Origin: Escherichia phage vB_EcoP_phi419
Direction: 5' to 3' (one strand)
Length of the DNA: 60,662 nucleotides
Sequence record: PV189407.1
The position numbers are program-made. Position 1 is the first letter of the stretch; the number at the start of each line of letters is the position of its first letter. Positions 39,001 through 45,000 of this stretch are shown here, piece after piece.

Positions 39001-42000
39001 GATTTTGTCATATATCACCTCAAATAAGTGGTTTGCTGCCTAATTTCATTTTCTGGCGACCAACACAAGTCATCTTGCCGTCAGTTGTTTTGATTTCCGG
39101 TAGCCTGCCGCGTAAAGAGCTACGTTTGGAAGACATACACCAGTTTCTGGTTGCTTATGTCCAAACTCATTCGCGTACACAATGGCCGCTCGCTCCAGAT
39201 TGCGTCTGTATTCTTTCTGTTGCCAGATCACGTCCTGTGCCATGAACTTAATTGGCTTAGCGTCTTCTATGCGCTCAGGCGTTTCGTGAGTACCTTTAGC
39301 CTGAATCTGCGCTCTGCTTAGAGTAGGGCGGTGTAATACTTCTGAACTTATTGCTTCTTCGCGGGCCAGCACGCCGTTAGCTAATGCCTTTGCCTTTAAA
39401 CGCTCACGACGACGAGAACGTGAATTGCCTTTGAACTGAGTTCTGCGTGTCATATAGACCTCCTGATGAACTTTGGTGGTGTGGTAGGTGGGAGACCCAT
39501 TTCGACCTACTTCAATTCGGCAATAGTCCCGCAGGCCTCGCCGCTTTACGTGCGACATATTCCCGTCCATGAACCCTTCACCACACCCCAAAGTTCACTT
39601 TGGTTATTGCGCTTTGTCAGCGCCGTAGATTCATATTCGAATCGTTGTATATTCACCGCCCTGGTGAGTAATGCGTCCTGCTGATGACGATAATAATGAA
39701 CCAATAGTTCGACATTATCAAGAACTATTGGTACGAATTTTGGTGATTTATTAACTCTACGAAGTATGATTCTGATATATAAGGAAATTTATTTTTGAAA
39801 ATGTGGCTGATGAAGGTTATGCGGCAGGGATCATAACTGCATGGTTTAGCGAGTTACATCAATAAATACAATTGGTTATGTTTTTTAGGTGGGGGGATCG
39901 TGAGGCAAAGAAAACCCGGCGCTGAGGCCGGGCTAGATTTTAAAGTATTTATCTTTTAGAGATGTAGATGTAAAACTTTTCGCCTTTGAAAATTTTTTGT
40001 CATCAGAAGGGCTTATGAACTCATCTTTTTTGTAGGGAACCGCTAATGCTGCATCACGTCTGCGAGGCAGCTTGCTTACTTCCTCGCGCTTTTTCATGAT
40101 CAGTTATCCTTTAATAACCTATACAGTTTTGTAGGGGTACATCCTGAGGATATTGTTAAGTTCGTAGCACGCCTTTTCCGCCCATCATCGTATAAACGAA
40201 AACCAGTAGTAGACGAATTTTCTGCGTCAAAAACTATAGACAGTATAGCGTCCCCAGACTTTTTTTGCCATTCGCATGTGCCGTTAGTTGGTTTCGTCAT
40301 CTGTAGACGCCAGTCAAGAACGCCATCACTTATAGCTGAGAGATCGTTTAGTACATCTAGTACGGATTGATATCTTTCATTTGGATCTACATGAATGCAT
40401 TTGTTCACTATTGTTATTAATTTTTTATGTATATGGGGAGGATACTCTTTTAATGGATAGCAGCCATTAATTATCGACTCTCTGAGTTGTTCAATCGTGC
40501 TAAATGCAGATCTTTCTCTTTCAAAATTATCATGTCCAACACACATTCTATATATGGTTAATCCTGCCTGATATATGTCATATGTGAAATTATAATCATT
40601 TGTTGATAAAGAAAAATATTCCGGTGGCACATGAAAATGATATCCAAACTCAGGCGCAGCTCTCGATTCCTCATTGACTAACTGAGATAATCCAAAGTCA
40701 GATAGCATGGCCTCATTTCTGTTTGATATCATAATGTTATTAGGTTTTATATCAAAATGCATAAGACCTTTTGAGTGTATATGATAAAGTCCACTTAAAA
40801 ATTGAATGGAATACCGTATTATCTCCCTGCTTGTAAGATTATTTTTTTTCATTAATTGGTTTAGCGAACCATTATGATAAAATGGCATGGCTATATAGAT
40901 ATTGCTCTCACATTGAGCAGCATACTGAACTTGCACAATATTTGGATGTGCATGTTTATAGAGAAGCCTTGCTTCATTAAAGTAGTCGTCGTGGTTAGTG
41001 TTTTCTTTTTTTTCTATTTCTTTAATCACCAAGTCATGAGCTAGGTGTCTGTCATGAGCCAGATATACTTTTGAAAAACAACCCTGTTCTTCTAGATCAC
41101 TAATCCATTCGAATTCTACATCAGCTCTTTTGTATGGAGTTAGCATCCCCTTACCTCCGCAGATAGTGCAGCCAAAACAGCTTCATTTGTTTCAGTTGTA
41201 AAACCAGAATTATCGATTCCATTTATATTGCGGTGTGACTTCAATATTTCTTTATACTCGATCTCTGTTAGGTTCAATGATGATTTCATGCCAGATTTTC
41301 TAATAGTGTAATATTTTCTTACATCACTGCTTGAAAATGCTTCTTGAATAACAGCTTCTATATAAAGGCGGTCAATGCTAAGATTATCAGAGTTTGATTC
41401 AGTAACGCGTATGGCAGCTAATTCAACATTATATAAATTAAGAATGTCGAGGATGTTATTTCTCACATACTTTAATTTTTCTGGTGTGTCTAAGGTCGAA
41501 GGTATTTTAATAACATCAACACATTTGAGTGCAGACTCATTAGTGCAATATACAACAAAAGATGTAACTTTGGGCGCCGCTCTAACACCTAGTATTCTCA
41601 TTTTTTATATCCTATTTTAGAATCAGGCCGCATCTCTGCGACCATCCATCATCCAAACGTCTCTTCACTCATCCGAAGAAGCAGCAATCCGGGTCAGCAC
41701 GCACAAGCTCAAGCGCATCAGTCAGCGAAAGTTCAGTACTGTACTGATGCCATTTCATATCCTTCCGCATCCAATAGATTTTCCATCTATCCAGAGAACG
41801 TATGTACTTGATTCTTGCTGATGGCAGGATGTTTGTTTCACCTGGATTGCCCTGCCACACGGGGCGCTGTTCGCCGATATCTATCGTTTGGTCATTGATG
41901 CTATAAACAATATCCAGTTCATTGCGGATATGTTCAGGCGGCCTTATGCTTTCAATGAATTGGTGAACTTCTTTTTTTACTGCTTGATATTCAAGGTCAT

Positions 42001-45000
42001 TGAACGCCATCTATCCTCCTTACCCAAACGTCTCTTCAGGCCACTGGTTACCAGCTATGTGACGATGAAGTCACGAACTTTTCAGCCACTCCCTTGCCTC
42101 GATGTCATCCAGATGGCGAGATTGCTTCAGAATACCAGCTACATACTCCACCTTTGCTACTTGATGATAAGGCAACGTTATAGGCCTGTGATCCTGGTTA
42201 ATGCTTGTAAATTGGTATTCTCCATCTCTGTCATAGCCAAGAACCTTAATCATGTTGTGTCCTTCAACGGTTCTGACAAACACCTCATCACCCGGGAATA
42301 CTTTGGTGTTAGGCTCAATGAGTACATATTCTCCTGATTTTATTCTGGGCCACATGCTGTCTCCTTTCACACGAAGACCAAAGGCATCTGGATCATCGCT
42401 ATAAATTTTGAGCCACCCATCGCGCTCTTCGGTCATCTCGATGGCACCATCAACACCAAGAATTGCCTCACCAACCACGCGCACTAACCCTTTTTTTAAT
42501 TTGCCAACAAATGAAAGAGTATCTTCATCATTCGCTCCATTTAACGAAGTGCCGTGCTGAAGCCAAACAACATCAACGTTTAGAAATTTCGCAAGCGCAT
42601 TCATTTTTTCCTGACGCGGTAAAGACTCAGCATTAAACCATTTGCTAACGCCTTTGGACGAAAGAGAAAGGGCACGGGCTATAGCCATTCCCCTACCATG
42701 TTCATCAAGACCAGCTTCTTTACAGGCTTGCGCTAGCCGCTGGGCGAATTCTTTGCGCACTTTTTCATTCTGAACCATGAGTACGATACTAAAGCACTTG
42801 CAAAAACTTTCAGTTCAACCATAATACGTACTGAAAGTACGAAAAAGGATATTCCTATGCAAAATCTTGATGAGCCGATTAAAGGTGTCGGCATCCCTGA
42901 AGTTGCGAAGGCTTGTGGAGTTAGCGAAAGGGCTGTCTATAAGTGGCTCAAAAACGGCTTCCTCCCTAAGACTGAGTTTTTTGGGAAAACTAAATACGCA
43001 TCAAAAATCGAAGAGATTTCTGGTGGCAAATATCAAGCAAGCGAAATGCTTGAAATAAGCAAAAAGAACCTTCTGGCTGCATAAGTAACACCGCTATTTT
43101 CACAATGGACATTCGTCCTACGTCGCTGACAAAGCGAGTCCCAATATATCTGACCAACTAAGGCCATATGCGTTTCCACGCATACCTTTCAACTAGCTAT
43201 TCACTATTGGAAATCTTAAGAAATGGAACAAACAAGTTACAGCAAACTATCCCAGCGTGACGTTGATCGCGCAGAAACAGATTTACTCATCAACCTGTCA
43301 ACGCTTACCCAGCGCGGTCTGGCAAAGATGATTGGCTGTCATGAATCGAAGATAAGCAGAACAGACTGGAGGTTTATAGCTTCGGTCTTGTGTGCTTTCG
43401 GAATGGCATCAGACATCAGTCCGATTAGCAGGGCTTTTAAGTATGCGCTTGATGAAATCACAAAGAAAAAATCCCCGGTGGCCGCCGGGGACTCTAAGCA
43501 AATTGATATGCAATTCTGAGGGAATTACTGGATCAATCCACAGGAGTCATTATGACAAAACAACTCAGTCCTTACCAGGACAAAATTCACAAACACATAC
43601 TACGTGATCGCTTCCTGTCCAGCTTCAAGCAGCCTGGTCGATTCCGGGCTGAGTTGGAAAAAGTGAAGCTGATGCAGAAGGAGAAAGGTCATGAGTAACA
43701 TATCTAATCTAGCCGAAGCCAGAGAGGCCAGAAGGCTACAACAACCGCATCAAAGCAGCGGTAAGGGGTATGCCTTGCTGCACCGTAAAATTATGGATGT
43801 GCCGTTTTACAAGGACGCAGAAGCTGCGCATCTGTGGGTTCACTTAATCCTCAAAGCAAAGCATACGCCTGAGTATGTAATGACTGACGCAGGAGAAATT
43901 CTGGTAGGCAGAGGGAAGCTACTTGGCGGTAGAAACTCTCTGGCGTTTGAAACAGGACTCAAACCAGATCGCGTTCAGTACCTGCTTAGAAAGTTCAAAA
44001 AACTCGGCATGATTGACTGGGTTTCACACGGTAAATTCTCAGTTTTCTCGGTAGAGAAATATGACGATTATCAGTCAAATTTTGTACCAGCAGATTACCA
44101 GCAAATTACCACCTCAAAGCCAGCAATACCAATGCCTGCAAGCAATACTGTACCAGCAGATTACCAGCAAATTACCACAGATAAAGAATATAATAATATT
44201 ATCTCTAATACTGACGTATTAGAGAGTACCGCAGCAGACAAAAAGTCTGACAAGAAAAAACCTTCCGTTAGCTGTCAGGATGTTGTCGATGCTTACCACG
44301 AAATCCTTCCTGAAGCGCCAAAAATCCGCGCACTGAATGACAAGCGTAAAAACCAGATCCGAACGTTCTGGCGCAAAGCCGGAGTGATAACCCGCCAGCT
44401 TGACGGGCATGGGTTCACGATGCAGGACTGGAGAAATTATTTGAGCTACGTAGGCGAAAATTGCCGATGGATGTTCGAAGAGCGCCCAAACCATCAGCGC
44501 GGAACCGTCTGGCACAAAAAGGGATTTGATTTCCTGCTTAACGACAATACCTACCTGAAAGTTCGTGAGGGTGAACACGATGACCGATAATTTTTATGCG
44601 CCGCCCCATAGCATCGAGGCAGAGCAGGCGGTGATTGGTGGATTGCTTCTGGATGATGACAGCAGTGAGCGCGTCCAGAAAGTTCTGGCGATGCTGAAGC
44701 CCGATTCATTTTACAGCCGACCACACAAAATCCTTTTCGAAGAAATAACCAGAATGCACCGGGAGCAAAAGCCAGTAGATGGCCTGACGCTTTTCGATGA
44801 ACTGGAGCGTAAATCGTTAACGGCGTCTGTTGGCGGTTTTGCTTATATCGCTGAGATCGCAAAGAACACGCCGAGCGCCGCAAACATCGTTGCCTATGCA
44901 ATGCAGGTTCGCGAAACCGCAATGGAACGCTACGCCATCAACCGCATGACTGAAGCGACGGAATTGCTCTATTCCCGCAACGGAATGACTGCGACGCAGA

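Follow-up and report, generated by a model that had tools for sequence, protein, structure and literature searches.

Introduction

Few phage-encoded kinases have been characterised. Stk of phage 933W is among them and is a textbook example of prophage abortive infection, so far treated as the work of one protein. According to papers that cite Tyler and Friedman (2004) and Friedman et al. (2011), Stk is a eukaryote-like (tyrosine) kinase that is co-transcribed with the repressor gene cI (PMC3564112, PMC3681748, PMC6356687), is almost inactive in uninfected lysogens (PMC3681748) and is activated on infection by phage HK97, upon which phosphorylation leads to abortive infection (PMC3681748, PMC3564112, PMC8008677). 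A 933W lysogen also excludes phage lambda about a million-fold, independently of cI immunity (Hsu et al., PMC6989128), and lambda hybrids with imm21, imm434 or immP22 escape this exclusion, for which that study left the responsible 933W gene unassigned (PMC6989128). Here, we analyse the corresponding four-gene block in the immunity region of Escherichia phage vB_EcoP_phi419, presented as one stretch of 60,662 nucleotides (nt) (the window; all coordinates are those of the whole stretch). Three of the genes, L0083, stk and L0081, form a conserved cassette around the kinase, and the fourth, L0084, which encodes a DUF3024 protein, is a passenger with a distribution of its own.

A preliminary description of this DNA had proposed a kinase-centred module of four co-directional open reading frames (ORFs) and had linked the kinase to Stk of 933W. 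The four ORFs, of 113, 153, 348 and 54 amino acids (aa), are all present on the minus strand where it had placed them, and 933W Stk is reported to abort HK97 infection. The link is borne out. Over 2.5 kb, the DNA matches Stx2-converting phage 86 at 100% identity and 933W at 99.8%; with 933W it shares the locus, the four ORFs, the terminator and the position, and there is no sequence difference of note. In 933W (record AF125520; annotation of Plunkett 1999), the four ORFs are named L0084, L0083, stk and L0081, and are followed by the terminator tM and, further left, by nutL and OL. Because the DNA matches 933W and Stx2 phage 86, neither the locus nor the part that Stk plays in exclusion is new, and nor are the flags that annotation tools place on stk and L0084. 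The comparative analysis reported here indicates that the system is a kinase-based form of abortive infection with apparently three components, not one.

Results

A conserved three-gene cassette around the kinase

In the window, L0083 (153 aa; 41140-41601, minus strand), stk (348 aa; 40100-41146, minus strand) and L0081 (54 aa; 39933-40097, minus strand) are tightly packed. The stop of L0083 and the start of stk overlap by 7 nt (ATGCTAA), as the preliminary description had noted. It had also called the 54-codon ORF coupled and terminated, and L0081 does start 2 nt past the stk stop codon, with an AAGGA Shine-Dalgarno motif that falls within the last part of the stk coding sequence and a hairpin (39934-39913) over its own stop; since the start lies only 2 nt after the stk stop, L0081 is probably translationally coupled to the kinase gene.

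Overall, about 180 other genomes were compared. A scan with an L0083 profile, limited to one genome per species, gave 75 loci in alpha-, beta- and gamma-proteobacteria, cyanobacteria and myxobacteria, and at 74 of these a homologue of Stk lies immediately downstream of L0083. These kinases are 35-61% identical and mostly full length, the C-terminal extension included. The sole kinase-free locus, in a Sphingomonas metagenome-assembled genome (locus L092, 4001-4444), holds the most divergent L0083 of the set (32% identity) and has its neighbours on the opposite strand.

The same partnership was found among viruses. Divergent L0083 homologues in IMG/VR have a kinase beside them in all 33 loci, within 40 nt in 32 cases and 295 nt downstream in one. 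Bacillus phage SPbetaL7 carries an L0083 homologue (35% identity) that overlaps a Stk homologue (40% identity) by 4 nt, followed by an ORF of 60 aa. When the look-up was reversed, kinases of Elizabethkingia, P. aeruginosa and A. baumannii were each found to have a gene of the L0083 family directly upstream (3/3; profile E 1e-47 to 1e-53). The stop/start overlap between L0083 and the kinase gene measures 8 nt in 51 loci and 4 nt in 4 others.

An ORF of 30-110 codons follows the kinase in 60 of the 74 genome loci, its start mostly lying between -4 and +13 nt from the kinase stop codon. Outside the enteric bacteria, these small ORFs are clearly a conserved family, with the pattern M..IKND...Y..RS.L ... 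D..FY..F. The surroundings of the trio vary widely. In Klebsiella and Proteus prophages it stands behind at least four different repressor/replication modules, and elsewhere it is found in prophage immunity regions, as a moron in tail regions, and beside Wadjet, LlaJI-type restriction with ArdA, SAVED, integrases, transposases and housekeeping genes. No conserved fourth gene was found either upstream or downstream of it. L0083, stk and the small ORF make up a cassette of three genes that is conserved, coupled in translation and mobile as a whole, and L0083 and the small downstream ORF are near-universal partners of the Stk kinase family; L0084 is not.

L0083, a RuvC-fold protein

L0083 has a RuvC / RNase H-like fold and is labelled "RuvC-like Holliday junction resolvase" both by PHROG 3875 and in RefSeq. 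Its scores against resolvase models fall short of their thresholds, with 14.2 bits against Pfam RuvC (gathering threshold 22.2) and 12.5 bits against the NCBIfam RuvC model (cut-off 163), and searches by sequence against solved structures gave no significant match. Pfam and hhalign both place R7 of L0083 where RuvC has its first catalytic Asp, the residue that ends beta1; the hhalign comparison of the L0083 family with E. coli RuvC covers the N-terminal 62 columns only, at negligible probability, and was used just to place R7.

Conservation was assessed in 120 full-length representatives, one per cluster at 50% identity. R47, R78, E82 and E87 are present in all 120, R7 and E68 in 118 and E140 in 113. 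S92, Y57 and Y97 of L0083 are invariant as well, and P40, L43, R47 and D52 lie on a conserved face of its alpha1. The acidic tetrad of RuvC is not found in L0083, although E68 and E140 are kept (in poorly scoring alignments). Since R7 and the Arg-Glu set differ from that tetrad, we judge the resolvase label to be unsupported, and we infer from the alignments that L0083 would lack the canonical first catalytic Asp and would not be a canonical nuclease.

A library of 1.84 billion proteins holds 458 representatives of the L0083 family at E <=0.001, nearly all of them stand-alone proteins of about 150-165 aa. At 50% identity, the family (about 460 representatives) spans Proteobacteria, Bacteroidota, Cyanobacteria, Myxococcota and one Bacillus phage. 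PADLOC 2.0 has no match to L0083 or L0081.

The kinase and the micro-protein

The preliminary description had recognised a Hanks-type kinase from the motifs HFDIKPNN and DFG, which are found at residues 130-137 and 150-152 of Stk, respectively. The assignment is sound: Stk matches Pfam Pkinase over residues 21-260 (2e-46; 158.8 bits, cut-off 31.7), and in 16 homologues down to 39% identity the residues K42, E58, H130-F131-D132, K134, N137, DFG 150-152, PPE 174-176, D190 and R258 are invariant. Stk and all sampled homologues have HFD, not HRD, with F131 invariant. Since a Phe precedes the catalytic Asp, Stk does not have the RD (arginine-aspartate) pair and is a non-RD kinase. Non-RD kinases are usually not controlled by activation-loop phosphorylation, and the class would fit a regulation of Stk by partner proteins. 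Beyond the kinase domain lies a conserved extension of about 75 aa at the C-terminus, in which D278 and W279 are invariant and W293 almost invariant, and which has no family match. A cluster of 579 E. coli proteins matches Stk at 100% identity.

L0081 is a basic micro-protein with conserved tyrosines, whose only match is PHROG 4063 (2.5e-39), a family of unknown function. In enterobacterial prophages, homologues of L0081 that are 38-70% identical follow the kinase gene.

The DUF3024 gene is a separate cassette

L0084 (113 aa; 41669-42010, minus strand) matches Pfam DUF3024 (2e-31; 108.9 bits, cut-off 24.9) and the PADLOC model PDC-S43 (5e-42, spanning positions 1-115 of 115). Its AlphaFold2 (AF2) model is an alpha-beta5-alpha sandwich with a predicted local distance difference test (pLDDT) score of 90 and has no strong structural neighbour; by sequence, DUF3024 has no significant match among solved structures, and we found no functional paper on it. 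From these matches and from its tendency to sit just downstream of prophage repressors, DUF3024 may be regarded as an uncharacterised defence candidate, its anti-phage role being a putative one.

By tblastn, 143 phage records have DUF3024 and 40 have L0083, and DUF3024 stands after a repressor with no kinase in several lineages. In Salmonella phage SE1Spa it comes directly after the repressor, with a gene for a ParA-like ATPase next to it, and in a Morganella phage a DUF3024 gene of 34% identity likewise follows the repressor. A Rouxiella prophage has two DUF3024 genes in this position. They stand in tandem in Rouxiella badensis (locus L103, 2852-4148), each followed by a DUF333 fragment or gene, which suggests that the DUF3024 cassette can duplicate. 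E. coli 14EC001 has the same cI-DUF3024 pair, again kinase-free. There (locus L018, 1918-3023), the slot of L0083-stk-L0081 is filled by two uncharacterised genes of 162 and 206 aa with no Pfam family; since this slot holds other genes, the position after the repressor behaves like a hotspot for variable cargo. In phage Stx2 II (locus L005, 3501-3802) and about 50 related records, an unannotated DUF3024 homologue of 83% identity is detected as two tblastn pieces over residues 12-112, and the gene of this lineage may be frameshifted or truncated.

The converse arrangement also occurs. DUF3024 is missing beside the trio at 74 of the 75 genome loci and at 26 of the 33 divergent viral loci (six of the 33 have it), and in E. 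coli strains 0-4 and KSC207 L0083-stk-L0081 lies directly behind a different repressor, DUF3024 being absent. DUF3024 is a passenger whose distribution is independent of that of the kinase genes.

The junction between the two cassettes can be placed closely. In E. coli prophages that have only one cassette, the homology break-points fall inside the 67-nt spacer between L0084 and L0083: homology stops at window position 41662 in two matches (H120/H121) and begins at 41630 and 41645 in two others (H122/H123). The DUF3024 gene is flanked on both sides by an exact direct repeat of 15 nt, CCAAACGTCTCTTCA, whose copies are 371 nt apart. One copy (42024-42038, plus strand) lies between the cI stop and the DUF3024 start and the other (41653-41667, plus strand) immediately after the DUF3024 stop codon, in the spacer that holds the break-points; the window has only these two copies, where chance would give 0.04. 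The repeat looks like a scar or target of a recombination that would have placed the DUF3024 cassette. E. coli 14EC001 and phage Stx2 II have one copy each near the same junctions.

Position and transcription unit

The four ORFs lie in the slot between the repressor gene and the OL/pL region, as the preliminary description had said in likening it to the rexAB position of lambda. On the right is cI (42071-42778, minus strand; Pfam Peptidase_S24 4e-16 and HTH_3; annotated cI in 933W), which opens the PRM transcript and forms the context of the block rather than part of it. On the left, OL1/OL2 (about 39697-39734), mapped from the annotation of GQ499365, and a pL-like promoter bound the slot (together about 39693-39734, minus strand); the promoter scan gave a promoter-like site at 39721-39693 on the minus strand. 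The predicted transcript cI-L0084-L0083-stk-L0081 ends at tM (39913-39934, minus strand; annotated in AF125520), an intrinsic terminator with a hairpin and a T-tract. Its stem has 8 pairs, 6 of them GC, and is followed by TTCTTTGCCT; on the minus strand, the hairpin from 39934 to 39913 runs into TTTTCTTT and overlaps the last stop codon of the block.

Across the 38900-43300 region, a scan with Rfam gave no RNA family, and the promoter scan gave sites no more numerous than in shuffled sequence, so no internal promoter is claimed for L0083-stk-L0081. The record AP004402 (Stx2 converting phage I; 3175-3255 of the locus) places three operators and a further, second "maintenance promoter" within the reading frame of L0083. 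The promoter scan does not support these, and they have the appearance of an annotation artefact.

The whole block had been described as AT-rich. This is true of the three kinase-side genes (GC content 0.35-0.38; GC content at third codon positions, GC3, 0.27-0.36; window GC 0.49) and not of the DUF3024 gene, which at 0.447 (about 0.45; GC3 0.47) is close to cI (GC 0.45, GC3 0.40). The complete block was found in 223 of 5426 complete E. coli genomes (about 4%). Two neighbouring stretches are likewise rich in AT. The spacer of about 180 nt between OL2 and tM (39735-39912; GC 0.35) has no notable ORF and no Rfam match, and just past N lies a 156-aa ORF (38541-39011; 933W L0079, "similar to HK97 gp45"; GC 0.35-0.41) with no Pfam family.

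Discussion

The block is probably best read as an accessory part of a 933W-type PRM unit that is made up of two independent cassettes, one of which, L0083-stk-L0081, would be an abortive-infection system with partner subunits. The preliminary description had tentatively drawn all the flanking ORFs into the kinase module. This agrees well with the data for L0083 and reasonably for L0081, and fails for the DUF3024 gene, which about 100 phage records and further prophages carry with no kinase, the trio in turn being mostly without DUF3024. It had also found no recognisable function in the flanking ORFs. That stands for L0081, which belongs only to the function-unknown PHROG 4063, and no longer for L0084 (DUF3024/PDC-S43) or for L0083, whose fold is clearly that of RuvC. 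Of the structure predictions that it had proposed for the flanking products, that of L0083 gives this RuvC fold and that of L0084 an AF2 fold with no strong structural neighbour.

In the mechanism that we propose, the trio would be expressed from PRM in the lysogen, where Stk is nearly inactive, until a superinfecting phage such as HK97 switches Stk on and phosphorylation aborts the infection; these steps follow the published work. The kinase would be the effector, and L0083 and L0081 would be stoichiometric subunits of a kinase complex. L0083 would most likely act as a non-nucleolytic sensor or adaptor for a phage protein or a branched DNA intermediate, or else hold the kinase in check, and L0081 would most likely be a small regulator or pseudo-substrate. 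A wider proposal, which we advance tentatively, is that the trio might be an uncatalogued and widespread three-component anti-phage system, in which a RuvC-fold protein with a re-purposed catalytic site detects either a phage protein or an intermediate of phage recombination or replication and then licenses a non-RD kinase, with the micro-protein as regulator or pseudo-substrate. The exclusion by 933W Stk would then be one instance of it, and the annotation of the kinase as a single-gene system incomplete. Either cassette could be involved in the exclusion of lambda by 933W.

Several observations weigh against this reading. In PMC3564112, PMC3681748 and PMC6356687, the exclusion phenotype is credited to Stk only, and if stk alone on a plasmid suffices, L0083 and L0081 would be at most modulators for that trigger. 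By a simple criterion, 14 of the 74 loci have no candidate for the small ORF. The profile of the non-enteric small ORFs scores L0081 at E 3.9, no better than decoys, and a BLASTP comparison of L0081 with the small ORF of SPbetaL7 found no similarity; since the profile score of L0081 is not significant, we claim positional equivalence only and not homology. The equivalence of R7 and the catalytic Asp is drawn from low-scoring alignments (Pfam E 0.04, hhalign probability 0.9) and from the position in the model, not from a residue-level superposition, and the conserved constellation of Glu and Arg in L0083 could be an active site of some kind. Additionally, DUF3024 adjoins the trio in two divergent lineages, the 933W type and the Proteus type (38-41% DUF3024 identity), so that a functional interaction between DUF3024 and the kinase may exist.

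As an alternative, Stk could be a single-gene defence like PD-T4-6 or Stk2, with L0083 a true phage Holliday-junction resolvase and L0081 unrelated or spurious. In keeping with it, published work names Stk only, PADLOC and DefenseFinder-type tools call the kinase by itself PD-T4-6, and PHROG 3875 and RefSeq name L0083, whose fold is indeed that of RuvC, a RuvC-like Holliday junction resolvase. We regard this explanation as unlikely. L0083 adjoins the kinase in >95% of about 110 divergent loci from several phyla, where the stop codon of one gene overlaps the start of the next and the surroundings vary, which is unexpected for chance neighbours. It is encoded in the lysogenic PRM transcript and not among recombination or nin genes, and islands that are not phages have it too; in 118 of 120 representatives an Arg takes the place of the first catalytic Asp, and the Pfam RuvC score lies below the gathering threshold.

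Two further explanations keep partners for the kinase and assign them differently. The trio could resemble a toxin-antitoxin system in which the kinase is a toxin constantly neutralised by L0083 or by the micro-protein, with defence arising once infection depletes or displaces the antitoxin and not through active sensing. Tight translational coupling and a very small basic protein would be in keeping with such a system, as would the published finding that the kinase is nearly inactive in uninfected lysogens. Kinase toxins with small partner proteins exist, HipBA being an established example. Scans with Pfam and NCBIfam found no helix-turn-helix domain of the type II antitoxin kind in L0083 or L0081, and we give this explanation a small chance; it is a mechanistic variant of the sensor model, and the present data separate neither from the other. 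The last explanation makes all four genes one kinase module, with DUF3024 as a further sensor or regulator of Stk, and is in our estimate very improbable. The lone occurrences of each cassette speak against it: the phage records with DUF3024 number 143 and those with L0083 number 40, DUF3024 is kinase-free in SE1Spa, Morganella, Rouxiella and 14EC001, and the trio is without DUF3024 in 74/75 genome loci, in 26/33 viral loci and in E. coli 0-4 and KSC207. The DUF3024 gene also differs in GC and GC3, is bracketed by the 15-nt repeat and is modelled by PADLOC as a single-gene candidate. In favour of a four-gene module, the four genes share one direction and one predicted transcript, which stops at tM, and the trio has DUF3024 as its direct upstream neighbour both in 933W-type phages and in Proteus-type prophages (38-41% identity; locus L019, 6/33 viral loci).

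If L0083 and the micro-protein are indeed subunits of the kinase system, the step that senses the trigger becomes testable, including the switch by HK97 and the exclusion of lambda according to its immunity region. Defence catalogues would then need a three-gene kinase system, and the "Holliday junction resolvase" label in RefSeq and PHROG would need correcting for the L0083 family. The block is located in the immunity regions of Shiga-toxin phages and may shape which phages, including therapeutic ones, can grow on these pathogens. We found no paper on the pairing of a RuvC-fold protein with a Stk-type kinase in a literature coverage that leaves out most subscription journals, and searches on L0081/L0083/L0084, on RuvC-like proteins with kinases in phage defence and on HK97 gp41 with kinases gave nothing relevant, which is not proof of novelty. 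The conserved partnership offers a concrete and cheaply testable lead into how the kinase senses infection.

Comparison with known systems

Among catalogued defence genes, PDC-S43 and DUF3024 are both matched by L0084 over its full length, and in an O157:H7 genome PADLOC reports two separate systems, PD-T4-6 for stk and PDC-S43 for L0084. From RuvC resolvases, L0083 differs in sequence (12-15% identity), in its conserved set R7, R47, R78, E68, E82, E87 and E140, and in being paired with a kinase and never found in a context of recombination genes. With PD-T4-6 of E. coli and staphylococcal Stk2, Stk shares the use of a Hanks-type kinase as the effector of abortive infection. The PADLOC models for PD-T4-6 match Stk with a best E of 1e-37; they are generic models that also match housekeeping PknB-type kinases in S. 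thermophilus. PD-T4-6 and Stk2 are described as single-gene systems, whereas the Stk family has an obligate RuvC-fold partner upstream, a small ORF downstream and a C-terminal extension of about 75 aa, and the kinase is not found standing alone, L0083 being upstream in 74/75, 33/33 and 3/3 loci.

The closest parallel in position is rexA-rexB of lambda. Scans with Pfam, PHROG, NCBIfam and PADLOC gave no Rex-family match for any of the four proteins, and the likeness is one of place and logic. Both blocks occupy the slot between cI and OL/pL, on the strand of cI, with expression from PRM in the lysogen and a terminator. As described in PMC3564112 and PMC6356687, they also have in common an abortive-infection or exclusion phenotype and a sensor-plus-effector logic. 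They differ in that the effector here is a protein kinase and not a membrane protein, and in that the slot holds three genes together with a DUF3024 cassette.

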